Shown here: positions 42,463-62,471 of the stretch, piece by piece
Layout: every line of letters begins with the position of its first letter
Position numbering within the stretch: position 1 is the stretch's first letter
DNA from: Halarcobacter sp.
GTDB taxonomy: Bacteria > Campylobacterota > Campylobacteria > Campylobacterales > Arcobacteraceae
DNA: 64,000 bases
Direction of reading: 5' to 3'
NCBI GenBank assembly: GCA_048571215.1
Contig: CP182352.1
Span: 2,240,001-2,304,000 of the forward strand
The notes under the pieces: model-generated
Seen by the model: only the letters and a program-made list of their open reading frames with translations
Databases searched by the model: none
What the model was told of the DNA's origin: nothing
Translations under genes and position numbers: made by a program

Positions 42463-42889
42463 AAATATTTTAGTAATGGGAGTTTTTGATCTTTTTCATG
42501 TAGGTCATTTAAGATATTTAGAGTATTCTAAAAATCAAGGAAACTCTTTGATTGTTGGAGTTCTTAGTGATAAATCATGTCTAAAAATAAAAAGTAAAAA
42601 GCCCATCATCTCACAAGATCAAAGAATGGAAATAGTTAAAAGTTTAAAATGTGTTAATAGTGTTGTATCTCTACCTGATGAAAATATTTTAAAAGATGAA
42701 GTAAAACTTTTAGAATGGATTAATAATTTAAATATCAATGCAGTTGTAGTTAGTAAGGAGTGGGAAGGTTCCACTAAATGGGAAAAAAGAGTGCCCCTGT
42801 TTAAACAAAATGGCATAGATATTATTTATGCTCCTCATACAAATGGAATCTCAACTAGTGAAATAATGAATAGGATTTTATTAAAATAA
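42452..42889 (+). CDS. Cytidylyltransferase (TagD / glycerol-3-phosphate cytidylyltransferase-like)
   Basis: GVFDLFHVGH, LIVGV, HTNGISTS; overlaps the previous stop codon. Confidence 0.9.
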   Translation: MKNRNILVMGVFDLFHVGHLRYLEYSKNQGNSLIVGVLSDKSCLKIKSKKPIISQDQRMEIVKSLKCVNSVVSLPDENILKDEVKLLEWINNLNINAVVVSKEWEGSTKWEKRVPLFKQNGIDIIYAPHTNGISTSEIMNRILLK

Positions 42890-43049
42890 TGAAAAATATG
42901 TAAAATAAAAATAGATTTTCTACTTAAATATGATATTATATAAAATAGTTATATAAAGATAAAGTATCTTAAATTATAAGTGTTAGTTTTTATAAAGATA
43001 GTAAGATTTTCTTTTATTGAATCTTATGATAATGAAAGAGAGAAGATAT

Positions 43050-44111
43050 ATGATAAATTGTAATCAGCCTTTTTTATTTAGATATGACCCAGAAGTATTA
43101 GATATTTTTGAAAAGAACTCTATAAGTTTAGTTATTTCAACCTATCAAATAGGAAAAGTTATTATTTTAAGTGCTGAAAATGGAAAAATTGTGCAATTAC
43201 CAAGAACTTTTGAAGGTGTAATGGGTATATCATGTGATGATGAAACAATTAGTATTGCTACAAAAGATGAAGTTATAGTATGTCAAAACTCTACTGAGTT
43301 AGCTAAAACATATCCTCCATCATCAAATAAATATGATGCAATGTATATTCCTCAAGCTAAATACTACACTGGTGAATTAGCAATGCATGATATTTCATAT
43401 ACAAAAGATGGTTTAATTGGAATAAATACAAGATTTTCTTGTTTAGTCAAAATAGATGACAAGTTTAATTTTACTCCAATTTGGAAGCCATATTTTATAA
43501 ATAAATTTGAACCAATTGATGCTTGTCATTTAAATGGAATGGCTGTTGAAAATGACGAAATTTTATATGCTACAGCTTTTGGTAAAACTTCCACTTCTGA
43601 AGGATGGAGAAAAAACAAATATGATTCTGGACTTTTAATAGATGTTAAAAAAAATAAAATTCTTTTAAGTGATTTAAGTATGCCACATTCTCCTAGAGTT
43701 TATAAGAATTTTATTTATCTTACTGAATCAGCTAAAGGTGAACTTATTAAAATCAATAGAAAAACTTTAAAAAAAGAAGTTTTATGTTCACTGCCAGGTT
43801 TCACAAGAGGTATAGATATAAGAGGTGAACTTTTATTTCTTGGTATGTCAAAATTTAGAGAAGATCATTTATATGGAGATGCTCCAATTTTGAAAAAATA
43901 TGATAGTTTGAAGTCAGGAGTAGCAATATTCCATTTACCAACAAATACTCTAATTGGTGTAATTGAATATATTAATACCGTAAGAGAAATATATGATGTA
44001 AAAACTCTATCACATATTAGACCAAATATCTTAAATACAAATGATTCAAAATTTAAATTATCATTGTCAACACCAGAATTCACATATTGGGGAGAAAAAA
44101 ATGAATTTTAA
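43050..44111 (+). CDS. TIGR03032 / DUF4915-like protein
   Basis: STYQIGK, YYTGELAMHD, NTRFSCL, DACHLNG, LSMPHSPR, LPGFTRG, EIYDV; start taken at MINCNQ. Confidence 0.85.
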   Translation: MINCNQPFLFRYDPEVLDIFEKNSISLVISTYQIGKVIILSAENGKIVQLPRTFEGVMGISCDDETISIATKDEVIVCQNSTELAKTYPPSSNKYDAMYIPQAKYYTGELAMHDISYTKDGLIGINTRFSCLVKIDDKFNFTPIWKPYFINKFEPIDACHLNGMAVENDEILYATAFGKTSTSEGWRKNKYDSGLLIDVKKNKILLSDLSMPHSPRVYKNFIYLTESAKGELIKINRKTLKKEVLCSLPGFTRGIDIRGELLFLGMSKFREDHLYGDAPILKKYDSLKSGVAIFHLPTNTLIGVIEYINTVREIYDVKTLSHIRPNILNTNDSKFKLSLSTPEFTYWGEKNEF

Positions 44112-47100
44112 AAACAAAACTATATCAAAAATTGTTAGTAATATTTTATTTAAGGATATGAATAAGAATATTTTAACAATCATGTCCACCGGTATAATAG
44201 TCACTTCATTAAGTGCAAATGGTCCCTTTGTATCGGGAACTAATCCTTTATCCTCAGTATCATACTCCCAACAAACTGCACCTACCTTTGGAGATTTAGA
44301 TGGAGATGGAGATTTAGATGCTTTAATTGGAGCATGGGATGGTAAGCTATATTACTACATAAATAATGGAACTAAAAAATCTCCCTCTTTTAGTTCTTCT
44401 ACTATGCCAAGTGGTTTACCTAGTACTTATGCTGGTCTTACTCAAATGCCTGCTATTGGGGATATAGATAATGATGGTGATTTTGATGTAGCTATAGCAA
44501 GACAAGAGACTAATACTACAGCTTCAAGTTCTATAGTTTATTATAAAAATAATGGGGATGGTACATTTAGTTCTTTTTCCCCCTCAGGATTACCTACTTC
44601 AACTGGAGAGAAATGGGGAACACTTACTTTTGCCGATGTTGATCAAGATGGAGATCAAGACTTATTTATGGCTCATGGAAAAGGTGGCGGTCTATCTTAT
44701 TATAAAAATAATGGTAGTGGAAATTTTTCAACTGCTACAGCTCCTTCAGGAATGCCTTCTGGTGTTTCTTATCCAATATTTACCTTTGGTGATGTAGATG
44801 GAGATGGTGATTTAGATATGTTTCATGGTGAATATAAAAATACAGAGATAGAGTATTATCGAAATAATAGTGGTACTTTTAATCTTGTAGCCCTTAATAC
44901 AGCTTTTCCTTCTTCTGACTTAACAAATCCTGGTACAAGTTCTACTCCATGGTTAATGCCTAATTTGGTTGATATAGATAATGATGGAGATTTAGATCTT
45001 TTTATTGGTAACTATGCAAAAGCTGGAAATAATGTTGGAATTATTTATAGAGAAAATAGTGCAACATCATTATCTTCAATATCTCCAAGTGATAATAGTA
45101 CGAATGTTTCAATCGATACTAACCTTGTGCTTACTTTTTCAAGTGCAGTCAATGTTAATAGTGGGAATATTTATATTAAAAAAACATCAGACAATACATT
45201 AGTAGAAACTATAGATGTAACATCTGGACAAGTTACAGGTTCGGGAAGTACTACTATTACTATTAATCCATCATCAGATTTAAGTAATGGTATAGAATAT
45301 TATGTATTAACAGATTCTACAGCCTTTATAAATGCATCTACAAGTAGTGCTGTAACTGGAATAAGTGATACAAAATTTTGGAGTTTTACAACAGTATCTG
45401 CACCTTCAACCGACTCAGACACAACACTAACAGCCTCAGCAACAGTTACAGAACCTGTAAGTTTATCAACTACAGTTGATACAGTTGGTGAAGCTGTAGA
45501 TTTATTTGATTTTACTATCACTGATGGTGGAAGTGGTGACACTTTATCAACAGATATATCTCAAATAGTTTTAAATACTTCTGGAACTGGTGATTTTAGT
45601 AAAGTAACATGGAGACTAAATGGACCTGATGCTACAAATGTAACAGGTGCTTATAACTCTAGTACAAACACTATTACTTTTAGTGGTTTATCTTTATCAA
45701 TTACAGATGGAGGAAATGAAACATATACTGTAAATGGGTATTTTAATAATAACACAGGTCTTACAGAAGATCAAACTTTTATACTAAGTGTAGATGGGGA
45801 TACTGATTTAACACTTGATGCTTCTAAAACACAGATGACAGGTTCAAATAATCCAATCACAAATGGTGGTGGAACTACAGTAGATGTTACAGCTACAAAA
45901 CTTACTTTTTCTACTGAACCATCTACAACAGTTGTTAGTGGAAGTACATTTTCAACTCAGCCAGTTATAAAAGCTGTAGATGAATCTGGCAATGTAGATA
46001 TAGATTTTAGTTCAAATATTATTTTAAGTGAGAATGGAGCTGGTTCATTAGGTGGAACAACTACAGTTGTAGCTTCTTCTGGTGTTGTAACTTTTTCAGG
46101 AATCTCTTATAATGCAGTTTCAGATTCTGATTCAAACTTCACAATCACAGCATCAGCAACAGGCTTAACATCTGACACATCAAATAGTATTAATCCAGAT
46201 GTAGTAGCCACAAAACTTGTATTTACAACACAACCAAGCCCAACTTCACTTCAAAATAGCGTACAAACAGACTTTGTTACAGACCCAGTAGTGGAAGCAA
46301 GAGATGCAAATGATATTTTAGATATTGATTATTATAATTCAGTAACTATCTCTGAAAATGGTGCAGGGACAGGAAGTTTTACAAATAACTCTACGAATGC
46401 TAGTGGAGGGGTTGCAACATTTACAGGACTTACTCTTTCTCATAATGCAGATGAAACATTTAAGTTAGTTGCTACAGGTGGAGATAGTATTTCAGGAACT
46501 AGTTCAAATCTTACAGTTACTTCAAATAATGCTCCAGTAACAACACTTCCAAGTGCACCAACTATCCATGAAGATGCAACAAATGTAGCCTTTGCCAATA
46601 CAATACAAATAACAGATGGGGATAGTGATAATCAAACAGTTACCCTAAGTGCTACAAATGGAACATTAAGCTTAACTCCAACTGGACTAAGTTTTACAAC
46701 AGGTGACGGTACAGATGATGCAACTATGACCTTTAGTGGAACCTTAGCAGCAGTAAATACAGCACTAGATTCATTAACATTTAGTCCAACTGCAGACTAT
46801 GATGGGAGTGCATCTTTAAGAGTTCAAACAAATGATGGAAATGGTGGAACGGATGATGATACATTAAATTTATCAGTTTTAAATGCACCAGAGATTACAA
46901 GTATAGTAAGAGGAACACCAAGTTCACAAAATACAAATGCAGATTCTTTAACATTTTATGTATACCTAGATAGTAATATAACAACAGATGCAACAGCAGC
47001 AGATTTTCAAGTTATCGGAACAACAACAGCAACAGTTACAAGTGTTACAAGACAAAGTATATATTATGAAGTAGTAGTTTCTGGTGGAAATCTAGCTTCA

Positions 47101-50100
47101 TTTAATGGAAGTGTTGGATTAAAGTTTGTAGATGATAATAGTGTACTAGATTCAAATGGTGTACCAATAGGTGGTGATGGAATTGACCACTTTACAACAG
47201 GTGAAACATATACAGTTGATAATACAGCACCAACTACAATAATATCAAATATAGACATAAGTGCAGATACAGGTACAAGCTCAACAGACTTTTTAACAAA
47301 AACAGCAAGCCAAACTATAACTGCAACCCTTTCAACTGCACTTGCAGGAGGTGAAGTATTATATGGTTCTATAGATGGTGGAAGTAATTGGATAGATATC
47401 ACTTCAAAAGTATCTGGCTCAGCAATCTCTTGGGATGGAGCAACACTAAGTGGAACAAACTCAATAAAACTTAAAGTAACAGATGCAGCAGGAAATGATG
47501 GATCAATAGCTACTCAAAGTTATACTATAGATACCTCTGCTCCAACAGCAAACCTAACAAGTGCAACAGATAATGTAGGAAGTGTAACAGGAGGATTAAG
47601 CTCAGGAGATACAACTGATGATACAAGTTTATTATTAGCAGGTACTAATGAATCAGGTTCAACAGTAAAAGTATATAATGGAACAACTCTTCTTGGAACT
47701 GCAACAGTTACTGGAACATCTTGGACTTATAGTGCTACTATTGCAGATGGTACAACTTATCAATTTAATGTAAAAGAAACAGATAGTGCTGGAAATGAAA
47801 GTACTGCTACTTCTAACTTTACTGTTATTGGTGATACCTCTGCTCCAACAGCAAACCTAACAAGTGCAACAGATAATGTAGGAAGTGTAACAGGAGGATT
47901 AAGCTCAGGAGATACAACTGATGATACAAGTTTATTATTAGCAGGTACTAATGAATCAGGTTCAACAGTAAAAGTATATAATGGAACAACTCTTCTTGGA
48001 ACTGCAACAGTTACTGGAACATCTTGGACTTATAGTGCTACTATTGCAGATGGTACAACTTATCAATTTAATGTAAAAGAAACAGATAGTGCTGGAAATG
48101 AAAGTACTGCTACTTCTAACTTTACTGTTATTGGTGATACCTCTGCTCCAACAGCAAACCTAACAAGTGCAACAGATAATGTAGGAAGTGTAACAGGAGG
48201 ATTAAGTTCAGGAGATACAACTGATGATACAAGTTTATTATTAGCAGGTACTAATGAATCAGGTTCAACAGTAAAAGTATATAATGGAACAACTCTTCTT
48301 GGAACTGCAACAGTTAGTGGAACATCTTGGACTTATAGTGCTACTATTGCAGATGGTACAACTTATCAATTTAATGTAAAAGAAACAGATAGTGCTGGAA
48401 ATGAAAGTACTGCTACTTCTAACTTTACTGTTATTGGTGATACCTCTGCTCCAACAGCAAACCTAACAAGTGCAACAGATAATGTAGGAAGTGTAACAGG
48501 AGGATTAAGCTCAGGAGATACAACTGATGATACAAGTTTATTATTAGCAGGTACTAATGAATCAGGTTCAACAGTAAAAGTATATAATGGAACAACTCTT
48601 CTTGGAACTGCAACAGTTACTGGAACATCTTGGACTTATAGCGCTACTATTGCAGATGGTACAACTTATCAATTTAATGTAAAAGAAACAGATAGTGCTG
48701 GAAATGAAAGTACTGCTACTTCTAACTTTACTGTTATTGGTGATACCTCTGCTCCAACTATTGCAATAACAAGTGATAAAGATGCACTAAAAGCAGGAGA
48801 AACAGCAACAATCACCTTTACCTTAAGTGAAGCAAGTAGTAACTTTGCAAGTGATGATGTAAGTGTAAGTGGAGGAACATTAACAAACTTTAGTGGAAGT
48901 GGAACAAGCTATACAGCAACCTTTACTCCAACTGCAGACTCAACAACTAATGGAACAATTGATATAGCAAGTTCTAAGTTTACTGATGCAGCAGGAAATA
49001 ATAATAGTGCTGCAACTCAAAAATCTATAACAATAGATACAGTAGTGCCAAGTGTAACAATAAGTTCAAGTTCAGATTCACTAAAAGCAGGAGAAACAGC
49101 AACAATCACCTTTACCTTAAGTGAAGCAAGTAGTAACTTTGCAAGTGATGATGTAAGTGTAAGTGGAGGAACATTAACAAACTTTAGTGGAAGTGGAACA
49201 AGCTATACAGCAACCTTTACACCAACTGCAGACTCAACAACTAATGGAACAATTGATATAGCAAGTTCTAAGTTTACTGATGCAGCAGGAAATAATAATA
49301 GTGCTGCAACTCAAAAATCTATAACAATAGATACAGTAGTGCCAAGTGTAACAATAAGTTCAAGTTCAAATGCACTAAAAGCAGGAGAGACAGCAACAAT
49401 CACCTTTACCTTAAGTGAAGCAAGTAGTAACTTTGCAAGTGATGATGTAAGTGTAAGTGGAGGAACATTAACAAACTTTAGTGGAAGTGGAACAAGCTAT
49501 ACAGCAACCTTTACACCAACTGCAGACTCAACAACTAATGGAACAATTGATATAGCAAGTTCTAAGTTTACTGATGCAGCAGGGAATAATAATAGCGCTG
49601 CAACTCAAAAAGTAATAACAATTGATAGTGAAATTCCTTCTGTAGTTATAACAACAGATAAAAATAGTGCAATAAATGGTGAAGTAGTAAACCTAAGCTT
49701 TGCCCTAAGTGAAGATAGTTCAGATTTCACAGTTGATGATATAACAGTATCTGGTGGAACAATAGATAACTTTGAACAAGATAATACAAATTCAAAATTG
49801 TATACAGCAAAACTAACAATAGATAATACTACCACCACAAAAACCACTTTAGATATAAGTGCAAGTAAGTTTGAAGATGCAGCAGGAAACCCAAATAATG
49901 TAGCTTTACAAAAAACTATTACAATCTTGCCAAGTGTATTAACATATACTCCAAGCTTAGATGCAACAGATATAGAACTAGATTCAACATTAGTATTAGA
50001 GTTTAGTGAAAAGTTAAATAAAGGTACTGGAAATATTCTTATAAAAAGATATAGTGATGATAATGTAGTTGAAACAATTGATGTAACAGGTACAAATGTA

Positions 50101-53016
50101 GTTATAGAAAACCCTAACGCAGGAAATAGCCTAACAAATACTCAAGTTACAATCACAAGAACTGTACCATTTACATTAAATACTAAATACTATATAGAGA
50201 TTCCAAATACATCCTTTAAAGATGTTGAAAATAACTTCTATACAGGAATATCTTCAAAAGATAGCTGGAAATTTACTTCTGTAGATAATCATGCTCCAAC
50301 TATCACAAGTGATGGAGGTGGTGCAACTGCAACATTAAATGTAGATGAGAACCAAACAGCAGTAACAACAGTAGTAGCAAGTGATGTTGATAATGGACAA
50401 ACTATAAACTACAGTATTTCAGGAACTGATGCAGCTTCATTTAATATAGATTCCTCAACAGGAGTACTTACTTTTAAAACAGCACCAAATTATGAAGTTA
50501 AAAACTTATATGGTGTTACAGTAACTGCAACAGATAATGGAGGAAATACCTTAAGTGATAGCCAAGATTTAACAGTTAATATAAATGATGTAAATGATGA
50601 CCCTGTAATAACAATAAATAATACATTAACAACAGATGAAGATAATGCAAAAGATTTATTGTTTACTTATACAGATGAAGATTCAAATACAGTAACAGCA
50701 TCTGAAAAGACAGCACCAAGTTATGGGTCAATAGTAATAAGTAGTGATAAAATCACCTATACTCCAAATGCTAACTTTAATGGAAATGATAGCTTTGTTG
50801 TAACCTTAACAGATAATAATGGCTTTAGTGTAGATAAAGCAATAAGTGTAACAGTTAATCCTATAGATGATGCACCAGTTATTACAACTACCTTAGATAA
50901 CCAATCAGAGAATGAAGATGGTAAAGGTTTAGTTATATCGTTAACAACAACAGATGTAGATAATGATTTAAATACAACGCCAGCAACATATAGTGCAACA
51001 TCTTCAGATGAAAATATAGCAACAGCATATATTCAAAATGGAAAATTAATAGTTGTACCAAAACCAAATGCAAATGGAACAGTTACAATTACAGTTACAA
51101 CAACAGTAAATGGGAAAAGTTCAACAAAAACCTTTACCTATACCTTAGTTAGTGTAAATGATGCCCCAACTATTTCAAATATTGCAGATATTTCTCATGA
51201 ACAAAGTTCAAGTGCTATAAATAAAACAATCACCTTTGATATCTGGGATGATGTGGATGTAACAAGCTTAAGTGTAACAAGCTCAAATACAAACTTACTT
51301 CCAAATAGTGATATATCTGTTTCAAAACTATCTTCAACACAAGGTGAGTTAAGTTATACAATTTCTGCAAATAACGCAGGAACAACTACTGTGGAAGTTG
51401 TAGCAAAAGATGCTGAAAATCTAGAGTATAAAGAGAGCTTTAATATAAATGTAAAAGCTTCAAATGATGCTTTATGTGTAGAGAATACAAAAACAACATT
51501 GGTATTTGATACAATAAAAGAGAATAACATCTCTCAAGATGCAATAACATCAAATCTTGATTTGGTTAATACAATAGCTTCAATTTGTAGCTCAACTATA
51601 ACTTGGAGTATCTCAGATACAAGTGTTTTAGATGTAAATGGTATAGTAACTAAAGGTACAACAGATAAAACAGTAACTGCAACAGCAAATATAGCAAAAG
51701 GACAATTTAGTACTACAAAAGTATTCTTGCTTACAATTGTAAAGAATGCAATAAGTGATAGTGAAGCCTTAGATAAACTTCTGTTTGAAAATATAAAAGG
51801 TGATAACCTAAGTAGATTGAAAATCACTTCTAAACTTAACTTGCTAGATACAATCTTAGGTAAAACCATCACTTGGAGTGTAGATGATGATAGTGTAATC
51901 TCACCATACTCAGGATATGTAACAAGAGGTTCAAGCGATACACCTATAGTCTTAACAGCAAAAGTAGGAGCTGAAACGAAAACCTTTAATCTAACAGTTT
52001 TAAAAGATGAAAGTACAAATACAGCTGCTCAAATAGTTGCAAAAGATAAAGAGTTACTAAGTATAGACTCTATTTTAGGAGAGAATAAAGATGATAATAA
52101 TATTATCTATAACCTAGAAAAACCACTTCCAAGCTTAGGTGTAAATGGTTCAACAATAACTTGGAGTAGCTCAAATGAAAACTATATCACAAATGATGGG
52201 GATGTATTAAGAGATGAGAATGCAGATAAATATGTGGTGTTAACAGCAACTATTACAAATGGAAGTGAAACAACTACAAAAGAGTTTATACTAAAAGTTC
52301 TTCAAAATAAAATAGAAACAAATGATGAAACAACTTTTAAAAATGCAAGTGATACTCCAACAGGTACAAGTGTTACAACAACAAATAATGGTAGTGATAC
52401 AACAACAGAGGCAAGCTTTACTAATACAATTTTAAATATTGTAGAAAAAGTGGTATCTCAAGATAGTATAAACAATATTATTGAGTTTGCACAAAAAATA
52501 GTAAATGTATACCTAAATACAGATGGAACTTCTCAATCAACACTGCAAAATCAAGATGGAACAAGTTCTTCTATAGAAACACAAACTAAAGGTTCAACTA
52601 CAAATGTAGATGATAGTGGAAATGTTCAAACAACAAATGGTAGTGTAACTCTAAAATTAAATAGTGATGGAACAGTTACCCATGAAGTTACAAAAGGAGC
52701 TTTAAAAACAACAGCAGACTCTACAATCTCTGGTTCAAATGTAAAAGAGGATGGAAGTGGTAATGTTGAAACCACCTCAGAAGTTACTCAAGGTGGATTT
52801 GTATATAAAGCAGTTGTAACAACAAATAGTCAAGGGGAAACTACTACTAAGTTTGTAAAAGTAGATTTATCTACAGGGGAACAAAGTGAAGTTGATAAAA
52901 CAATAAGTGATACAACCCCATATCAAGCAGGAAATAAAGTAGAGATTAGTAAAGTAAATGGTGTTTTATATATTAAAACAACAACTCCACTTGATGGTAG
53001 TATAGTAATTGAATAA
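44101..53016 (+). CDS. Giant (~2970 aa) surface adhesin: five FG-GAP repeats, Ig-like tandem domains, cadherin-like domains, three atrophied-Ig-like domains and an unrecognised C-terminal beta-rich domain
   Basis: GGAGA RBS before ATG 44101; leader ending ...VTSLSA; DxDxDGDxD five times; DAAGN/DSAGN-type Ig repeats; NDAP/VDENQT cadherin-like linkers; ITWS..G.V three times. Confidence 0.9.
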   Translation: MNFKNKTISKIVSNILFKDMNKNILTIMSTGIIVTSLSANGPFVSGTNPLSSVSYSQQTAPTFGDLDGDGDLDALIGAWDGKLYYYINNGTKKSPSFSSSTMPSGLPSTYAGLTQMPAIGDIDNDGDFDVAIARQETNTTASSSIVYYKNNGDGTFSSFSPSGLPTSTGEKWGTLTFADVDQDGDQDLFMAHGKGGGLSYYKNNGSGNFSTATAPSGMPSGVSYPIFTFGDVDGDGDLDMFHGEYKNTEIEYYRNNSGTFNLVALNTAFPSSDLTNPGTSSTPWLMPNLVDIDNDGDLDLFIGNYAKAGNNVGIIYRENSATSLSSISPSDNSTNVSIDTNLVLTFSSAVNVNSGNIYIKKTSDNTLVETIDVTSGQVTGSGSTTITINPSSDLSNGIEYYVLTDSTAFINASTSSAVTGISDTKFWSFTTVSAPSTDSDTTLTASATVTEPVSLSTTVDTVGEAVDLFDFTITDGGSGDTLSTDISQIVLNTSGTGDFSKVTWRLNGPDATNVTGAYNSSTNTITFSGLSLSITDGGNETYTVNGYFNNNTGLTEDQTFILSVDGDTDLTLDASKTQMTGSNNPITNGGGTTVDVTATKLTFSTEPSTTVVSGSTFSTQPVIKAVDESGNVDIDFSSNIILSENGAGSLGGTTTVVASSGVVTFSGISYNAVSDSDSNFTITASATGLTSDTSNSINPDVVATKLVFTTQPSPTSLQNSVQTDFVTDPVVEARDANDILDIDYYNSVTISENGAGTGSFTNNSTNASGGVATFTGLTLSHNADETFKLVATGGDSISGTSSNLTVTSNNAPVTTLPSAPTIHEDATNVAFANTIQITDGDSDNQTVTLSATNGTLSLTPTGLSFTTGDGTDDATMTFSGTLAAVNTALDSLTFSPTADYDGSASLRVQTNDGNGGTDDDTLNLSVLNAPEITSIVRGTPSSQNTNADSLTFYVYLDSNITTDATAADFQVIGTTTATVTSVTRQSIYYEVVVSGGNLASFNGSVGLKFVDDNSVLDSNGVPIGGDGIDHFTTGETYTVDNTAPTTIISNIDISADTGTSSTDFLTKTASQTITATLSTALAGGEVLYGSIDGGSNWIDITSKVSGSAISWDGATLSGTNSIKLKVTDAAGNDGSIATQSYTIDTSAPTANLTSATDNVGSVTGGLSSGDTTDDTSLLLAGTNESGSTVKVYNGTTLLGTATVTGTSWTYSATIADGTTYQFNVKETDSAGNESTATSNFTVIGDTSAPTANLTSATDNVGSVTGGLSSGDTTDDTSLLLAGTNESGSTVKVYNGTTLLGTATVTGTSWTYSATIADGTTYQFNVKETDSAGNESTATSNFTVIGDTSAPTANLTSATDNVGSVTGGLSSGDTTDDTSLLLAGTNESGSTVKVYNGTTLLGTATVSGTSWTYSATIADGTTYQFNVKETDSAGNESTATSNFTVIGDTSAPTANLTSATDNVGSVTGGLSSGDTTDDTSLLLAGTNESGSTVKVYNGTTLLGTATVTGTSWTYSATIADGTTYQFNVKETDSAGNESTATSNFTVIGDTSAPTIAITSDKDALKAGETATITFTLSEASSNFASDDVSVSGGTLTNFSGSGTSYTATFTPTADSTTNGTIDIASSKFTDAAGNNNSAATQKSITIDTVVPSVTISSSSDSLKAGETATITFTLSEASSNFASDDVSVSGGTLTNFSGSGTSYTATFTPTADSTTNGTIDIASSKFTDAAGNNNSAATQKSITIDTVVPSVTISSSSNALKAGETATITFTLSEASSNFASDDVSVSGGTLTNFSGSGTSYTATFTPTADSTTNGTIDIASSKFTDAAGNNNSAATQKVITIDSEIPSVVITTDKNSAINGEVVNLSFALSEDSSDFTVDDITVSGGTIDNFEQDNTNSKLYTAKLTIDNTTTTKTTLDISASKFEDAAGNPNNVALQKTITILPSVLTYTPSLDATDIELDSTLVLEFSEKLNKGTGNILIKRYSDDNVVETIDVTGTNVVIENPNAGNSLTNTQVTITRTVPFTLNTKYYIEIPNTSFKDVENNFYTGISSKDSWKFTSVDNHAPTITSDGGGATATLNVDENQTAVTTVVASDVDNGQTINYSISGTDAASFNIDSSTGVLTFKTAPNYEVKNLYGVTVTATDNGGNTLSDSQDLTVNINDVNDDPVITINNTLTTDEDNAKDLLFTYTDEDSNTVTASEKTAPSYGSIVISSDKITYTPNANFNGNDSFVVTLTDNNGFSVDKAISVTVNPIDDAPVITTTLDNQSENEDGKGLVISLTTTDVDNDLNTTPATYSATSSDENIATAYIQNGKLIVVPKPNANGTVTITVTTTVNGKSSTKTFTYTLVSVNDAPTISNIADISHEQSSSAINKTITFDIWDDVDVTSLSVTSSNTNLLPNSDISVSKLSSTQGELSYTISANNAGTTTVEVVAKDAENLEYKESFNINVKASNDALCVENTKTTLVFDTIKENNISQDAITSNLDLVNTIASICSSTITWSISDTSVLDVNGIVTKGTTDKTVTATANIAKGQFSTTKVFLLTIVKNAISDSEALDKLLFENIKGDNLSRLKITSKLNLLDTILGKTITWSVDDDSVISPYSGYVTRGSSDTPIVLTAKVGAETKTFNLTVLKDESTNTAAQIVAKDKELLSIDSILGENKDDNNIIYNLEKPLPSLGVNGSTITWSSSNENYITNDGDVLRDENADKYVVLTATITNGSETTTKEFILKVLQNKIETNDETTFKNASDTPTGTSVTTTNNGSDTTTEASFTNTILNIVEKVVSQDSINNIIEFAQKIVNVYLNTDGTSQSTLQNQDGTSSSIETQTKGSTTNVDDSGNVQTTNGSVTLKLNSDGTVTHEVTKGALKTTADSTISGSNVKEDGSGNVETTSEVTQGGFVYKAVVTTNSQGETTTKFVKVDLSTGEQSEVDKTISDTTPYQAGNKVEISKVNGVLYIKTTTPLDGSIVIE
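47530..48741 (+). repeat. Four near-identical 303-bp (101-aa) Ig-domain tandem repeats
   Basis: GATACCTCTGCTCCAAC recurs at 47530, 47833, 48136, 48439 and 48742. Confidence 0.97.
48787..49610 (+). repeat. About three near-identical 294-bp (98-aa) Ig-domain tandem repeats
   Basis: CTAAAAGCAGGAGA recurs at 48787, 49081 and 49375. Confidence 0.95.
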
Positions 53017-53026
53017 GGATATAAAA

Positions 53027-53311
53027 ATGAAAAAGATATCAATAATTGTATTAAGTATTTTAAGCTCAATAGTATTTACTGCTTGTGGAGGGGGAGGAGG
53101 AGACTCCTCTTTCAAACAAACAATAGTAGATATAACAGTTACTTGTGTAGCAAGCCCAACTTCAACAGACTTTGATACTTATAATACTTTGTATACAGGA
53201 GATACTGTTGTAAATGATCAGCCAGGTACTACAGTTACAACCTATCATAATATAAATGGTGAAACAAAAGTGTGCTTAAATACAGGTGCAGCACATATTG
53301 TAAGGAAATAA
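53027..53311 (+). CDS. Small lipoprotein (94 aa)
   Basis: MKKISII...FTAC lipobox, Gly5 tether, two further Cys; its AAGGA RBS overlaps the adhesin stop codon. Confidence 0.85.
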   Translation: MKKISIIVLSILSSIVFTACGGGGGDSSFKQTIVDITVTCVASPTSTDFDTYNTLYTGDTVVNDQPGTTVTTYHNINGETKVCLNTGAAHIVRK

Positions 53312-53312
53312 G

Positions 53313-53933
53313 ATGAAAGTATTAAATAATATAAAAACACTAAGTTTGTTAAGTTTAGTAGTATTTGCAGTAAATCTAAATGCAGATTCTAGTTTAGAAA
53401 AAACCTTAGATGATAAAAATGTATATGTGGGAGTATCATTAGGTTATTCTAATCTTCATATGTCAAAGGATGATAAGGTAGGAAGTGTAGCTTTAATAGA
53501 GAATATAGACTCCTCTTCAAAAAACATCTTGTTAGAAACAGGGTTTGAATATAATAAAAATTTAGAATTCTCATTAAACTACCAAAGGGTAGATAATGAT
53601 GATGTAAACTTAGATAATGTATATGTTTCTTTAAAATATAAATTCCCACAAGATAAGTTTACTCCTTATGTAGCAGCAAACTTAGGATACTCACAATTAT
53701 CTTGGCAAACAAGACCAGTTGCAACCATAAATAATGATACAAGCTCAGGTTCATATTTAGTTGGTACAACTTTAGGATTGCTATATCCTTTAACTACTAA
53801 GGTTAGTTTAAATCTAAACTATCAAGTTAATATGTTAGACCATGAAACTAGTGTTGAAAGTTTACCTAATAGATCTATATTAAATCATGATTTACTTCAA
53901 TCTTTTAATGTTGGGATTAGGTATACTTTTTAA
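53313..53933 (+). CDS. Small outer-membrane beta-barrel protein (about 8 strands)
   Basis: Signal peptide, YVGVSLGYS, FTPYVAANLGYS, C-terminal beta-signal VGIRYTF. Confidence 0.88.
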   Translation: MKVLNNIKTLSLLSLVVFAVNLNADSSLEKTLDDKNVYVGVSLGYSNLHMSKDDKVGSVALIENIDSSSKNILLETGFEYNKNLEFSLNYQRVDNDDVNLDNVYVSLKYKFPQDKFTPYVAANLGYSQLSWQTRPVATINNDTSSGSYLVGTTLGLLYPLTTKVSLNLNYQVNMLDHETSVESLPNRSILNHDLLQSFNVGIRYTF

Positions 53934-55569: not shown

Positions 55570-56208
55570 TTGAAAAAAGTTATTTTTCTATCTTTCATAA
55601 TGTTTTCTACATTTTATGCAAATGAAACTTCAAATATACTATATAACTTCTCTCAAGAAAAAATAGAATCTGTAAAAAACAAATATGGTAAAAAAGCAGT
55701 AAAAAGATTTCTTATATTAGATAGTGTTTTAGAAAAATCGAAAAACAAAGATATCCTTACTAAATTAAAAAATATTAATGACTTTTGGAATAGAGTAACT
55801 TACAAATCAGATTTAATTCATTGGAATAAAAAAGACTATTGGGCAACTCCTTTTGAATTTTTAGGAACAGGAGCTGGAGATAGTGAAGATTATGTAATTG
55901 CAAAATATTTCAGTTTAAGAAAATTGGGTATTCCAAAAAGTAAATTAAAAATAAGCTATATTAAGTTTAAAGAAAAAACTAATAAACCCCATATGGTATT
56001 AAGCTATTATCATAAACCCAACTCAATTCCAATTGTATTAGATAATATTGACAAAAAATTAAAACTTGCATCAAAAAGAATTGATTTTATTCCTACTGCG
56101 CTTGCTAACAATACTGCATTTACTAATAATACTATGCTTACTAATAATAAAGAAAAAATAAAAAGTTTAAAAATACTCAAATCCAAAACAAAACAACTTT
56201 CAAAATAG
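55570..56208 (+). CDS. LapG-like transglutaminase-like peptidase paralogue with catalytic Cys replaced by Ser
   Basis: DYWATPFEF, GAGDSEDYVIAKY (AGT at 55882-55884), PHMVL, LDN; divergent repetitive C-terminal tail. Confidence 0.85.
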   Translation: MKKVIFLSFIMFSTFYANETSNILYNFSQEKIESVKNKYGKKAVKRFLILDSVLEKSKNKDILTKLKNINDFWNRVTYKSDLIHWNKKDYWATPFEFLGTGAGDSEDYVIAKYFSLRKLGIPKSKLKISYIKFKEKTNKPHMVLSYYHKPNSIPIVLDNIDKKLKLASKRIDFIPTALANNTAFTNNTMLTNNKEKIKSLKILKSKTKQLSK

Positions 56209-56336
56209 TTTTACATAATAGTAAAGCACTTTAAAATTTATATTAATCAAACTAAAAACTTAGAAGTTGTAAAATATATGGAACATAAATAAAAGAGGAT
56301 ATATAATTAATCTTTTTTTATTCACAAGGGATTATT

Positions 56337-56984
56337 TTGAAGAAAGTACTATTTTTATCTTTTATAATCACTTCTATGTTTTATACAATTACAATAGCAA
56401 ATAAGTTATATAATATTTCTCCACAAAAAATTGATGCAATAAAGAAAAAGTATGGTAAAAAAGCTGAAAGAAGATTTTTAATTTGGGATAAAGTTATGCA
56501 AAGTGCTAAAAATAAAGATATCCTTCACAAATTAAAAGATGTTAATGATTTTTGGAATAAAGTTGCTTATAGATCAGATTTGGTCCATTGGAGAAAAAAA
56601 GATTACTGGGCCTCACCCTATGAATTTTTAGGAACAGGGGCTGGAGATTGTGAAGATTATGCTATAGCAAAATACTTTAGTCTAAGACAACTTGGTATTC
56701 CAGAAAATAAATTAAGAATAACCTATGTTAAACTAAAAAGAAGAAGTACAAGATATGATGAAGCCCATATGGTATTGACTTATTACCACAAACCTGACTC
56801 AACGCCAATTGTACTAGATAATATTGACAAAAGATTAAAACTTGCGACTAAAAGAACCGATTTGTTACCTGTATATAGTTTTAATGCAAGTGGCTTATGG
56901 CAAGCAAAAAACAAGGGTAGAACCTCTATAAGAGTTGGAAAAAATAATTTAAGTAACTGGAAGTCTTTAATGACTAGAATCTAA
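56337..56984 (+). CDS. lapG: Transglutaminase-like cysteine peptidase (LapG/BTLCP)
   Basis: GAGDCEDYAIAKY, AHMVL, LDN, PVYSFN; immediately upstream of a LapD-like gene. Confidence 0.9.
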   Translation: MKKVLFLSFIITSMFYTITIANKLYNISPQKIDAIKKKYGKKAERRFLIWDKVMQSAKNKDILHKLKDVNDFWNKVAYRSDLVHWRKKDYWASPYEFLGTGAGDCEDYAIAKYFSLRQLGIPENKLRITYVKLKRRSTRYDEAHMVLTYYHKPDSTPIVLDNIDKRLKLATKRTDLLPVYSFNASGLWQAKNKGRTSIRVGKNNLSNWKSLMTRI

Positions 56985-56994
56985 AGGAGAAAAG

Positions 56995-59217
56995 ATGTCT
57001 TTATCAAAACAGCTGTATATAATTATATCATTTATATTTTTTATTATATTTACAGGAAATTTTTTAATTAGTGTTAAAAATACAAAAGAGTATTTAGAGA
57101 TTGAGTCTGCTACAAAAGCACAGGATACTGCCACATCACTAGGTATGAGTATAAGACCACTTATTAAACAAAAAGATGACCCAGAGATTGAGTCAATCAT
57201 AAGAGCTATATCAAATAGTGGTTTTTATAAGGAGATAAGATTAGAAGATGCAAACTTCATTATAAGCAAAAAACAGTTACTTGATGCTTCAACACAACTA
57301 GATAATACTAAAGACTGGACTATAACTAAAATATTTGTTGATCCAAAATTTGGAAAAGTAGAAAAAATTGAATCTGATGCTTTATTGAATGAAAAACTAG
57401 AAAAATTGGAAAATGATAATACAGATTCAGATTCTTTTACTTTTGAGGACCAAAGCCAGCAATTTAGATACCTACCATCAAAAGAGTACAAAAATGGAGG
57501 GAATATAACCTTTGAATTTACAGCTGTAAATAAAAACAACAGTATAGATACCTTTGCAAATATAACTATGAATAGAATTATTTTTCAAGAAAAAAGAGCT
57601 GTAAAATTTGATTATGTACCTGAATGGTTTATAGATTTGATTGATATGAATATGGAAGAGAAATATAGTGAGATCTCAGATGGCTGGAATACCTCTGCTA
57701 TTATTTATGTTAGTGCAAACCCAGGAGATGCTTATGCAAAACTTTATGAACAAGCTAAAAGTTCTGTAATATATTCAACTATTGCCTTTATAATCTCTAT
57801 AATTTTCCTTTTTGTTTTTGTTCAGTATCTTTTAAAACCCCTTAAAATGATTGAAAAACTAGCAAAAGATATTGCTCAAGGAAACTTTAGAACAATTGCA
57901 AAACTTCCATGGACAACAGAGATTAGAAATGTAGCAATTTCTATGAATGATATGTCAGTAAAAATTGAAAATATAATAAATAAATTAAATAAAAACCTTG
58001 AACTTCTATCAAAAAAACTTTCTGAAGATGAGTTAACTAAACTTCCTTTAAAATCTACATTTGATACTGATATGAAAGATATGTTTATACATAAATCAAA
58101 TGGTTATGTTTTTAATATAAAAATTGATGATTTAGCCTTATACGCAAAAAAACATACAAATAGTGAAGTTAATAAATTTATAATAAATTTTGCTAACTCT
58201 TTAACCTCCCTATATAATGAAAAAAATCTAAATATAAAAGCTTATAGATTTTTTGGTTCAGAGTTTGTTATATTAGCAAAAGATTGTGATTATGAATGTG
58301 CTAAAAGAGTTTGTAGTTTACTAAAATCACAATTTGAGAAATTATCAACAAGTTTTGAGAAAGATGAAATTGCACATATTGGTGCAACTCCTTTTAATAC
58401 CTATGGTACAATTCCTGAGATGTTACAATCAGCAAGTGAGGCCTTTGAAAAAGCTAAACTAATAGGACCAAATGAATCATTTATAAAAGATAAAACAGAG
58501 CTTTCAAGAGATATGGAAGCATGGAGAGATTTAGTATTTGATATTATTACTAATGCATCATTTGAAGTGGATTATATAAATAATGCACTTGAATTATCAA
58601 AAGATGAAGATAATATAATTATGCAAGAGGCATTTACTCAAATAAAAGATAAGGATAATAATATTATTCCTATTGGTACTTTTGTATCTATAGCTGAAAA
58701 ATATGAAAAAATTATTGATTTAGATAAAGAGGTTATTTCAAAAGTTATACACCATATAAATATAAATGGTATTAAACATAATATCACTATCAATTTATCA
58801 ATTGATTCAATATCTAATCATGAGTTTATAAGCTGGCTTCAAAAAATGATTAGCAAAAATAAAAATATCGCCTCACAATTGGTATTTTCAATAACAGCTT
58901 ACGCAGTTGCAAAAGATGTTAATATATTTAAAAACTTCTGTGACCATATCCATACTGCAGGTTCTAAAATTATAGTAAAAAGATTTGAAACTAAATTTAT
59001 TCCACTAGATAACATAAAAGATTTCAATCTAGACTATATAAGACTTGCAAGGGAATATACAAATGAGATTCAAAATGACTCAGCTAAACAAAGTTTTGTA
59101 GAATCTATACAAGACCTTTCTACACTATTAAATATTCAAGTTTTAGCAGAAAATATCAAAAGTGAAGAGGAGTTCAATATGATAAAAGAACTAGGTCTTT
59201 ACGCGGCAAGTAGATAA
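56995..59217 (+). CDS. lapD: LapD/MoxY-type c-di-GMP receptor (periplasmic domain, HAMP, degenerate GGDEF-EAL)
   Basis: MSLSKQL, AQDTATSLG, VPEWF, DGW; GGDEF position reads RFFGSEF and EAL position reads QEAF. Confidence 0.88.
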   Translation: MSLSKQLYIIISFIFFIIFTGNFLISVKNTKEYLEIESATKAQDTATSLGMSIRPLIKQKDDPEIESIIRAISNSGFYKEIRLEDANFIISKKQLLDASTQLDNTKDWTITKIFVDPKFGKVEKIESDALLNEKLEKLENDNTDSDSFTFEDQSQQFRYLPSKEYKNGGNITFEFTAVNKNNSIDTFANITMNRIIFQEKRAVKFDYVPEWFIDLIDMNMEEKYSEISDGWNTSAIIYVSANPGDAYAKLYEQAKSSVIYSTIAFIISIIFLFVFVQYLLKPLKMIEKLAKDIAQGNFRTIAKLPWTTEIRNVAISMNDMSVKIENIINKLNKNLELLSKKLSEDELTKLPLKSTFDTDMKDMFIHKSNGYVFNIKIDDLALYAKKHTNSEVNKFIINFANSLTSLYNEKNLNIKAYRFFGSEFVILAKDCDYECAKRVCSLLKSQFEKLSTSFEKDEIAHIGATPFNTYGTIPEMLQSASEAFEKAKLIGPNESFIKDKTELSRDMEAWRDLVFDIITNASFEVDYINNALELSKDEDNIIMQEAFTQIKDKDNNIIPIGTFVSIAEKYEKIIDLDKEVISKVIHHININGIKHNITINLSIDSISNHEFISWLQKMISKNKNIASQLVFSITAYAVAKDVNIFKNFCDHIHTAGSKIIVKRFETKFIPLDNIKDFNLDYIRLAREYTNEIQNDSAKQSFVESIQDLSTLLNIQVLAENIKSEEEFNMIKELGLYAASR

Positions 59218-59381: not shown

Positions 59382-62300
59382 ATGTTTGAAAAGTTTTTAA
59401 GGTTTTTTGTTGAGAATACAAGGATGAACTACACTCTATTTGTATTAGTCTTTGCCCTTGGAATCTGGTCATATAATAATACAGCAAAAGAGATTTTCCC
59501 CACCTTTGATTTAGAAATGATATCTATAAGAGGTTCATATGCAGGAGCATCTGTTGATATTTTAGACAAGATGGTAGTTACAGAAGTTGAAGATAATCTG
59601 AAAAACCTAGATAGCATTGATACTATGACTACTGTTATAAGCCCTGGAAGTTTTACTATTGTTTTAGAATTAAAAAAAGGTAAAAATAAATATAATGAAG
59701 CTGATAAAGTGAAAGATGTTATCACTTTAGTTAAGGGTGATTTACCTTCAGATATGGATGAACCAACAGTAAATGTCTTGGATAGAAGTCGTACACTTTT
59801 AGATATATCACTAACATCTAAAAAATATAGTTTAGATGAGTTAAAACCCCTTGCTGATGATTTAAAAAGTCAACTTTTTACAATACCTGGAATAAATGAT
59901 ATTACAATATATGGAGATTCTGATGAGTATTATGAGATACTTATAGATGATACAAAAATAAAAGCTTTAGGATTAAATAAAACTTAAGTTTTTTCTGCTA
60001 TTTCAACCCTTTCATATGTTTTTCCCCTTGGTAAGATTGAAGGTAAGACCAAGCACTATTATATCTCTACTTACAATGGGGGTAAAAATGCCCAAGATTT
60101 TGCAAATACTCTAATTAATATAGGTGATGTTTCAATCTATTTAGGAGATATTGCTAAAGTATCCAAAAAATATGAAGATTCATCAACCCTATACTCTTTT
60201 AATGGAGAAAATGCCCTATCTTTAAAAATTGAACAAAATGATACGGCAGATGCCATTGAGATTACAAAAAAAATAAATGAGTTATTACCAGAACTAAATA
60301 AACAAAACCCTAATGTAACTGTAACTATTGCTGATGATAATAGTGAAAGAATCAAAGATAGATTAAATATTGTTGTTTCTAATATTATGTTAGGAATCAT
60401 CCTTATAACTATTTTAGTAATGTTACTAATAAACTTTAGAATGTCTTTTATCATAGCTATTGGTATCCCAACTTCTTTTGTAATAGCAGCTGTATATATC
60501 TATTTCTCAGGCTATACCATAAACATGATTTCCTTAGTTGGAGTTTTAATTGCAATTGGTATAGTTGTAGATGATGCCATAGTTGTAAGTGAAAATATTC
60601 AACAACATATTGAAGATGGACATTCACCAAAAGAAGCTGCTGTATTGGGTGCAAAAGAGATGGTAAAACCTGTAACTGTGGCTTCCCTTACAACTTTGTT
60701 TTCTTTTTTGCCCATATTATTAATAAGTGGTACTATGGGTGAAGTTATGAAGTTAATCCCTATTGCACTAAGTGCTTTAGTTGTTGCTTCACTAATAGAA
60801 TCATTTATATTTCTTCCAATACATGCAGCCCATACTTTAAAAAGTGGTGCAAAGGTTACATCATGGGAGAAAGTAAACAAGATTTACAGTTCAATAATAC
60901 ACCTATTTATGAACTGGAAAAAAACATTTTTACTTATCTTTATTATTATTGTTCCTGCATTAACAGCTTTTTCAGTAATGACGTCAAAATTTCAATTTTT
61001 TCCAAAATTTGATGCAAGTGATGTAAAGATTACAATCAAAGGAAATGAAAATCTAAAACTTGAAGATTCTTTTAAAATTGTTCAATCAATAGAATCAGAC
61101 CTAATAGCTAAAAAAGATGAGTTTTTTATCAAAAGTATTGATTCAGTTGCAGGTTTTAGACGAGACTTAGCAAACAATACAGAGAGATTTCCTTATGTTA
61201 TGTATATGACAGTTGAACTACAAAAATTGAAACCTAGCAACCTCTTAGATAAATATGTAACCCCTTATCTTAGTTTTTATTATGATGAAGAAGGTAGAAC
61301 AAGAACCCTCCACTCTGCTCAAATTGCAAAAAAAATAAATAAATTTTTAAAAGAGCAAGATTATAAGAAAAAGTTTTCCCTAAACGAAATTGCCATAAAA
61401 GAAAGAAGAGTAGGACCTATAAAATCTGATATTAAAATTGGACTAATCTCAAATGATAGCCAAAAAATCATATCTTCAGTTTTTAAAATAGAAGATGAGA
61501 TAAAAAAAATCAAAGGTATAAAATCTTACTCTAACTCTTTAAAATTCGGGATAGATGAGATAAAACTAAAGGTTAATGCCTATGGACAACAACTTGGTAT
61601 TGATGAGGCTTATTTAGGAAACTATTTATCTAACCTTTATAGACTTAAGAAAAAAGCTACTGCTTTTGATGCTACTTCTATGTTAGATATAAAAATACAA
61701 AGTCTAAACAAAGATGATTTTGAAGAGTTTAAGAATATGGAAGTACCCCTATCAAATGGCACTTATGTTGCCTTAAAAGATATTGCAGAATTTAATATTA
61801 TTAAAAGTTTTGAGCAAATAATAAAAGACAATGGGGAGAAAAACTTTTATATTTTTGCAGATGTAGACCCTGATATAATAACAGCAACAGAAGTTATAAA
61901 AAAACTAAAACCAACTTTAGATAAAATAAAACAAAGTGGGATGAAACTTGTTTTTAAAGGGGAAGAGGAGAAAAAAGCGGAACTTATGCATGATATGGTA
62001 TTAGCTTCTGCCTTGGCTATTATTCTTATTATGCTAGCTATGCTTTATTTATTTAACTCTTTTAGAGAAACTTTTATAGTTATGAGTGTTATACCTTTTT
62101 CTATTTTAGGGGTTTTAATTGGTCATGAAATTATGGGCTTAAATCTATCTATGCCTTCTATTATTGGAGCTTTAGGTTTAGCTGGGGTTGTTATAAATGA
62201 TGGAATTATTATGATGACCTATTTGAAAAAAGCTAAAAAAATAGATGAATTTTTCTTTAGGGTTATAAAAAGATTTAGACCAATTATCTTAACAACAATC

Positions 62301-62471
62301 ACAACACTAATAGGTATGAGTTCTTTGATATTTTTCCCAACAGGACAAGCTGTAATTTTCCAACCAATTGCCATAGCTTTAGGCTTTGGTCTTTTATGGG
62401 GAACTGTACTAAATCTTATTTATTTACCTGTTTTATATGCTTTGGTTCATAAAATCAAAGGGGATAGCTAG
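59382..62471 (+). pseudogene. AcrB/RND-family transporter interrupted by one in-frame TAA (59985-59987)
   Basis: The ORFs at 59382 and 60387 are in the same frame and the sequence between them is open after the stop; about 1029 codons in total; GIVVDDAIVVSENI, RFRPIILTT. Confidence 0.9.

Follow-up and report, generated by a model that had tools for sequence, protein, structure and literature searches.

A portable C-terminal domain and a small lipoprotein form an undescribed two-gene surface-protein module with an optional beta-barrel

The giant adhesin and its neighbors

We analyzed a stretch of 64,000 nucleotides from Halarcobacter sp. (Arcobacteraceae; assembly GCA_048571215.1, contig CP182352.1, positions 2,240,001 to 2,304,000), here called the window, with positions counted from its first letter. 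On its forward strand the genes for a giant putative adhesin, a small lipoprotein and an outer-membrane beta-barrel follow one another (Table 1). The C-terminal domain of the giant protein (the tail) and the lipoprotein constitute a real, undescribed two-gene surface-protein module, to which the barrel is an optional addition; how the module works we infer.

Table 1. Features of the module and its borders in the window
Feature	Positions	Strand	Basis
TIGR03032/DUF4915 gene directly upstream of the adhesin	43017..44111	+	NCBIfam
Giant adhesin-like protein, 2991 aa as longest open reading frame	44041..53016	+	Pfam domains, leader
Third and last aBig_2 domain (residues 2666-2755), bounding the terminal domain on its upstream side	52036..52305	+	Pfam
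C-terminal all-beta domain (tail) of 232 aa with 21 predicted strands, beta-hairpin repeats and 20% Thr	52318..53016	+	Profile, AlphaFold
AAGGA ribosome-binding-like site, 7 nt before the lipoprotein ATG, overlapping the adhesin stop	53015..53019	+	Sequence
Small lipoprotein cognate to the tail, 94 aa, with GGGGG after lipobox FTA-C	53027..53311	+	Sequence, alignment
OmpA-like outer-membrane beta-barrel (PF13505), 206 aa, optional third gene	53313..53933	+	Pfam

The adhesin probably starts at 44101 (ribosome-binding site GGGGAG) or 44158, and its leader then ends ...TSLSA/NGPF, in agreement with the Sec-like leader recognized in an initial annotation of this DNA. Pfam models match FG-GAP repeats, followed by a stalk of Big_5, Big_13, Big_12, cadherin and Big_9 domains and by three aBig_2 domains; the terminal domain comes next, and the protein ends ...TTTPLDGSIVIE. 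The Pfam scan found no autotransporter, two-partner secretion (TPS) or repeats-in-toxin (RTX) families in the adhesin, and the only GGxGxD motif is an isolated copy at residue 1044, with no RTX array; the same three absences had been read from the sequence initially. Also as initially reported, no type I secretion system (T1SS) or TpsB family was found among the 51 window reading frames scanned; elsewhere in the genome there are four T1SS membrane-fusion genes over cut-off, two TpsB genes and one type II secretion system (T2SS) cluster. The tight packing of the three genes was described correctly as well: the ribosome-binding site of the lipoprotein overlaps the adhesin stop, and the barrel ATG stands 1 bp past the lipoprotein stop (53309-53311). 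The domain boundary placed at 52320 needed a small correction to the in-frame position 52318, while the domain itself stood. The genome has one copy each of the tail, lipoprotein and barrel genes. One RNA run gave 19 short contigs across the region, too little to show expression or co-transcription, and a scan of the region for promoters and terminators stayed at chance level.

A portable domain at the end of diverse proteins

A search of 1.84 billion proteins with a profile of the last 132 aa of the adhesin (E<=0.001) retrieved a family of 384 clusters at 50% identity. Position and terminal residues were analyzed for the best 150 of the 384 matches. The tail match ends within 8 aa of the C-terminus in all 150 and exactly at it in 132; the last residue is Glu in 87 and Phe in 42. 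The number of hairpin repeats upstream of the terminal unit varies (1-6 matched stretches per protein). The proteins in front of the tail are unrelated in their domains, which include NHL propellers, FG-GAP, laminin G, DUF285, DUF5122, a nuclease domain, PKD, fn3 and DUF4347, and tail-bearing passengers reach 5832 aa. The initial annotation had suggested a profile of the C-terminal region as a test for diverse N-terminal passengers, and this is what the search returned. Among the 98 tail proteins of at least 600 aa, crude heuristics assign a signal-peptide-like start to 71 (many others look partial) and a lipobox of their own to none; none has a C-terminal RTX array, defined as two or more GGxGxD motifs in the last 400 aa. 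Thr and Ser are abundant in the tail and aromatics few, and no membrane-spanning helix was found in it.

An AlphaFold model of the tail built from 82 sequences is all-beta with 21 strands (pLDDT 96.4, pTM 0.91) and, together with the family profile, bears out the initial description of the last ~230 aa as a distinct, beta-hairpin-rich domain. Known families do not account for it. No NCBIfam model matched the last 232 aa (52318-53013) at E<=0.1, the only Pfam match was to an unrelated model (E 0.016), and the PDB sequence search returned nothing for the tail; the suggested comparison with known secretion signals and anchors thus gave no NCBIfam and no clear PDB match. Foldseek matches did not exceed TM 0.25 and the best other fold match had Z 4.9 (rmsd 7.7, 145 aligned), although a missing match in such searches does not prove a new fold; ESM Atlas held nothing usable. 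The weak fold matches are meander sheets and barrels, none reaching Z 5. In the monomer model the final ten residues form almost no sheet, which, speculatively, would fit a strand donated to a partner. We conclude that the tail is a real, portable and undescribed domain.

Tails occur in 17 of the 184 genomes of the Arcobacteraceae, frequently with 2-4 copies each. Of 377 genomes sampled from the phylum's other families, 6 carry a tail; the two largest of the families sampled gave none (0/118 and 0/158). Carriers named among the 20 of the 150 best matches that were looked up are an Arcobacter sp., two Sulfurimonas and Chrysiogenes arsenatis (WP_027390333.1). Individual loci have peculiarities of their own. 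Two tail-bearing passengers (L037:6396-9032 and P0025) have a ubiquitin domain after the leader, in a bacterial genome; in the first it spans residues 23-91 (Pfam ubiquitin, E 3.5e-27). One locus is broken, with only a 192-aa tail remnant (genome G105, L011:4796-5374), and at another (G070, L030:3832-14536) an inserted element appears to interrupt the adhesin, with tail, lipoprotein and barrel intact downstream.

Coupling of the tail to the lipoprotein and the optional barrel

At all 40 testable loci, from 23 genomes and one metagenome contig, a lipoprotein gene lies directly 3' of the tail gene, which is the consistent succession that the initial annotation had proposed to look for. For the 39 genome loci the lipoprotein was detected at 37 in one comparison and at two (L045 and L046) in another; two loci whose tails are cut by contig ends (L034 and G173:C194) are left out. 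When only the tail was used for searching, 20 loci were found and the next gene was a lipoprotein homolog at 20/20. The arrangement holds at the 9/9 loci from other families and on the metagenome contig, which has 48% GC. A reverse search with the lipoprotein alignment added 12 loci: nine with a tail directly upstream, two at contig ends and one with no tail match (L031). Three candidate lipoprotein loci (L033, L035 and L036) were dropped, their matches being confined to the signal peptide and Gly tract, as were other weak rows covering only the first half of the profile.

Genomes with three or four loci keep one lipoprotein per locus, and the tail paralogs within a genome are mostly 16-30% identical, apart from three recent pairs at 53-69%. 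Pairwise distances of tails and lipoproteins correlate (rho 0.48, 37 pairs), a value reached by none of 2000 permutations, and for paralogous pairs the matching tail and lipoprotein travel together across genomes. At the level of sequence distances, this correlation shows co-inheritance of the two. Tail and lipoprotein also stay adjacent, in four families, where the entire passenger and every flanking gene have been exchanged. Taken together, these comparisons support a dedicated tail-lipoprotein pair. The same linkage could arise if the genes were inherited as a cassette while their products never interact: cassette inheritance would equally produce close linkage and distances that match, contact does not follow from linkage alone, and the L031 lipoprotein sits behind a 1247-aa adhesin-like protein with no detectable tail. 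We consider co-inheritance without interaction extremely unlikely, given the adjacency at every testable locus despite exchanged passengers and flanks, in four families and for pairs only 16-30% identical. No description of a tail-lipoprotein module was found in a full-text search of mainly openly available papers.

The lipoprotein consists of a signal peptide with lipobox, a Gly/Ser tether and a beta domain of ~60 aa. The lipobox Cys20 is invariant in 67/67 aligned members, as expected of a bacterial lipoprotein, and 58 of the 67 start with Cys-Gly-Gly/Ser. Two further cysteines, Cys40 and Cys83, are conserved in most members and likely form a disulfide. The model of the mature protein shows a small six-strand beta domain on the Gly/Ser tether (pLDDT 89). 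Its fold search gave no clear match (best Z 4.2, rmsd 2.8, 59 aligned, with jelly-roll/cupin-like rows), Foldseek returned nothing at E<=0.001, the PDB sequence search matched signal peptides but not the mature part, and ESM Atlas offered only unnamed clusters (0.81). Homology between lipoprotein and tail was rejected (hhalign probability 0.2%), and a FecR-like fold, considered because of a resemblance, was not among the fold-search matches. Tail and lipoprotein are two new families missed by annotation pipelines. At one locus (L043:7618-8439) the lipoprotein is longer, 273 aa: it has an additional domain, and its lipobox and partner domain are separated by a long Pro-rich spacer, as would fit a tether in need of reach.

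The third gene is less constant. In the window its product matches PF13505 (E 2e-11, 44.8 bits, cut-off 28.7) and has a signal peptide and terminal Phe, as an OmpA-like barrel should. A barrel follows the lipoprotein at 21 of the 39 genome loci, 17 have none and one has a truncated copy (L018, after an SH3 domain). Nineteen of the 21 were found by the barrel profile; the others are L028, classed as a paralog of L030 on its size, leader and terminal Phe, and L044, with an OmpA-like barrel of another type at the same place. At L072 the third gene (213 aa) is a possible barrel, with a weak PF13505 match (E 0.026) and none to the barrel profile. The barrel family was not found in six carrier genomes (G093, G100, G103, G105, G126 and G446), three of them closed (G103, G105 and G126); the search of the first five had a positive control, recovered in 5/5.

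The initial annotation had treated the C-terminal domain, the lipoprotein and the barrel as a dedicated three-gene unit for anchoring or translocation. The tail-lipoprotein part of this proposal holds, whereas a barrel as fixed third component does not: because only 21/39 loci have a barrel and its family was not found in six carriers, it is optional and not an obligate pore. A self-contained translocator, in which tail, lipoprotein and 8-stranded barrel would act as a split autotransporter with the barrel as pore, could draw on the barrel at over half of the loci, on the confinement of all 15 barrel-family matches at E<1e-39 to carrier genomes, on the other barrels at L044 and possibly L072, and on weaker homologs that precede large lipoproteins in another genus. 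OmpA-type 8-stranded barrels, on the other hand, are narrow and lack a POTRA domain, and together with the barrel-less loci and carriers this makes such a translocator very unlikely, even though a generic OmpA-like barrel might be encoded elsewhere in the barrel-less carriers.

Some barrel homologs have N-terminal SH3-like or larger domains. The weaker homologs, five SH3-type barrels, come from one genus without tails; their genes overlap the starts of large-lipoprotein genes and lie directly upstream of them (L051:9072-11541, L052:9512-12557, L053:699-3936, L057:8866-12148 and L063:1-3736; lipoproteins of 344-923 aa, those of L052 and L053 with DUF285). Because barrel homologs pair with large lipoproteins in a tail-less genus, they suggest an accessory role of the family around surface lipoproteins. 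At L046:2915-5053, a 712-aa protein joins a large N-terminal domain through a Pro-rich linker to a barrel of this family; the layout is autotransporter-like, with a barrel of the 8-stranded type.

Export, anchoring and related systems

We propose, as the most probable of the readings considered, though a tentative one, that the adhesin crosses the inner membrane by Sec, as its leader suggests, and that the lipoprotein would be lipidated on the lipobox Cys20. Gene coupling and co-inheritance suggest that tail and lipoprotein may bind in the periplasm or at the surface. Both would then cross the outer membrane through the T2SS, a step to which elimination and co-occurrence point, and the lipid of the small protein would hold the giant unlipidated adhesin on the outer membrane in trans. 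The barrel, where present, would be an accessory docking or stabilizing partner and not the pore, and any passenger fused to a tail may be displayed in the same way. The more general form of this reading, a previously undescribed surface-display system in which a portable C-terminal docking domain of new fold is lent a lipid in trans by its cognate mini-lipoprotein and delivered by the T2SS, is conceivable, if slightly more tentative; here the lipoprotein perhaps completes a shared beta-sheet with the last strand of the tail.

The T1SS is an unlikely route because a Sec leader is present and an RTX tail absent. In two closed carriers (G103 and G105) neither the barrel family nor TpsB (ShlB) nor Slam was matched; a third (G126) lacks matches to the barrel family and Slam and has only a sub-threshold one to ShlB. 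Slam (PF04575), which would be expected of type XI secretion system cargo, was over cut-off in none of five carriers, with weak matches in G000 (the genome of the window) and G055; the 14 control genomes also had none, so that this search lacks a positive control. The adhesin has the Sec leader expected of a T2SS substrate and its genome has the system: a full gsp cluster lies at G000:C1:1883835-1894245, and its GspD exceeds the TIGR02517 cut-off. Of the Arcobacteraceae carriers 16/17 have a full-length GspD-type secretin, versus at least 66/167 non-carriers (Fisher p 1e-5), the latter a lower bound from the 150 of 327 matches listed, and related genomes are not independent. The secretin family PF00263 was discarded as T2SS marker in favor of full-length GspD because, occurring in 176/184 genomes, it is uninformative. 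In other families 5/6 carriers exceed the TIGR02517 cut-off; in the remaining one, a single 686-aa frame contains both halves. Four of the 39 loci abut a gsp cluster, beside gspE. We know of no agreed sequence signal for T2SS substrates. Recognition of lipoproteins by this system is called elusive in the part of PMC9245377 on which we draw.

Several points weigh against the proposed reading. The association of carriers with GspD weakens to p=0.026 in a within-genus permutation, and three of the four gsp-adjacent loci belong to one genus and may represent one event. One carrier (G173; 90% complete, 200 contigs) has two tail matches and no full-length GspD match. The G105 adhesin is the 192-aa remnant, so elimination of other routes rests on G103 and G126. 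Passage of a 1500-5800-aa chain through a secretin is a putative step. Finally, the same data fit an anchor and a chaperone alike.

If the T2SS link merely reflected lifestyle, export might follow another route, assisted by the BAM or TAM machineries or of some other kind, for example with the beta-meander tail engaging the outer membrane. G173, the 42 tails ending in Phe and the meander sheets and barrels among the weak fold matches are in line with this; the 87 tails ending in Glu, the Thr/Ser-rich, aromatic-poor composition and the lack of a fold match at Z 5 are not, and we regard such a route as clearly unlikely.

The membrane-bound T2SS chaperones CpaB and LipB of Acinetobacter and the Lif foldases are small membrane-tethered partners, each found beside one T2SS substrate, and serve single enzyme families. 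The partner described here differs in serving a portable tail on unrelated passengers, and it has no sequence or clear fold match. The lipoprotein could nevertheless be a membrane-bound chaperone or pilot: it would bind the tail in the periplasm and help it fold or hand it to the T2SS, itself remaining behind, and the adhesin would be released or held otherwise, for example by the barrel. Linkage, co-inheritance and T2SS association fit equally well, and membrane-associated chaperones of T2SS substrates are known in Acinetobacter, judging by reference titles in PMC9245377. However, the adhesin would be left with no other anchor, having neither a membrane helix in the tail nor a lipobox, and dozens of Ig domains forming a stalk, with a propeller at the distal end, seem suited to a tethered protein. 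The prevailing Cys-Gly-Gly/Ser start also resembles that of surface lipoproteins such as MtrC. We therefore consider a chaperone that stays behind somewhat unlikely.

Display through the T2SS has precedents. The part of PMC9245377 used here describes it for the lipoproteins PulA, SslE, MtrC/OmcA and InvL, with which the proposed route would share Sec export, a lipid anchor, likely T2SS passage and a Gly/Ser tether after the Cys; their lipid, however, is on the functional protein, whereas here it would come from a separate small protein. In type IX secretion (T9SS), type B, as far as described in the portion of PMC10202324 consulted, an uncleaved C-terminal domain (CTD) on diverse large passengers clusters with a cognate partner proposed as anchor. 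Both the CTD/PorP-SprF/PorE arrangement of Bacteroidota and the present module combine a portable C-terminal domain, a linked partner and a general export machine encoded elsewhere, but in the present case a 94-aa lipoprotein is the obligate partner, and the barrel, which is OmpA-like, can be missing. The same portion of PMC10202324 describes T9SS CTDs as restricted to Bacteroidota. The CTD models TIGR04183, TIGR04131, PF18962 and PF13585 gave no NCBIfam match at E<=0.1 and were not among the 25 Pfam families listed for 82 members; comparison with the Ig-like CTD sandwich gave only tail fold matches below Z 5 and TM<=0.25, leaving room for an unlisted family.

Type V secretion offers a Sec leader, an Ig-repeat passenger and a neighboring barrel gene as points of likeness, and 3/98 tail proteins of at least 600 aa have an extended RFRIL-type leader, which we take to be the ESPR. 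For types Va and Ve, no translocator barrel family was found in the adhesin chain with Pfam or NCBIfam, and most of the best 150 tails end in Glu. For type Vb, the adhesin has no TPS family, the neighbor is a PF13505 barrel of 206 aa and the closed genomes G103 and G105 have no ShlB match. In the proposed type Vf (Hop-like), the passenger is inserted in an 8-stranded barrel of the same chain, according to the part of PMC6555100 cited here, whereas passenger and barrel are separate genes in our case.

If correct, the model could explain how orphan giants without RTX, autotransporter or TPS signatures arrive and are retained at the surface of Arcobacteraceae, Sulfurimonas and related environmental bacteria, and also of Chrysiogenes arsenatis. 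An entire class of Campylobacterota surface proteins would thereby have its sorting signal defined, and T2SS substrates would have a modular tag, defined by sequence, that occurs on hundreds of unrelated passengers of up to 5800 aa. A portable tail of 130-230 aa plus a lipoprotein would make T2SS substrate recognition testable by reporter fusions, and the two could serve as a display tag.

The surroundings of the module are variable. The gene directly upstream of the adhesin, TIGR03032/DUF4915, is passenger-linked and outside the module because it is found at only 3/39 loci. Further upstream (39793-42889), an 889-aa protein combines an ATP-grasp region like that of cyanophycin synthetase with TPR and a weak LicD match; a cytidylyltransferase gene and the TIGR03032 gene come after it, and the group is possibly a modification cassette. 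Two LapG-like proteases and a LapD-like receptor, which the initial annotation did not mention in this context, lie 1.6-5 kb downstream (55570-59217). The window has neither an RTX adhesin nor a T1SS to go with them; RTX-type giants and T1SS genes are found elsewhere in the genome. A giant Ig-repeat adhesin near lapG and lapD homologs is reminiscent of LapA/LapD/LapG systems, but LapA is a T1SS/RTX protein and the present adhesin has a Sec leader and no RTX tail. We rejected a Lap link: lapG occurs in the fetched DNA at 1/39 loci, so that this neighborhood looks incidental, and a TAA[GQ]-type motif in the last 420 aa, as a sign of the conserved dialanine cleavage site of Lap adhesins, also at 1/39. 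Still further downstream, an AcrB-family RND transporter is split into two reading frames (59382-62471; profile 2-199 and 339-1021) with a 400-bp gap and is apparently broken. Around the T2SS cluster of the same genome (G000:C1:1883835-1907629), a conserved SH3-domain gene stands at the end and a gene for a 2704-aa Cys-Gly-Gly-Gly lipoprotein precedes the cluster; one pattern finds 12 lipoproteins with this type of start in the genome. Across the 39 loci, an OmpR-like response regulator is present in the fetched DNA at ten (L004, L015, L021, L022, L024, L028, L032, L037, L042 and L044), tail-collar genes at two and S74-chaperone genes at two.

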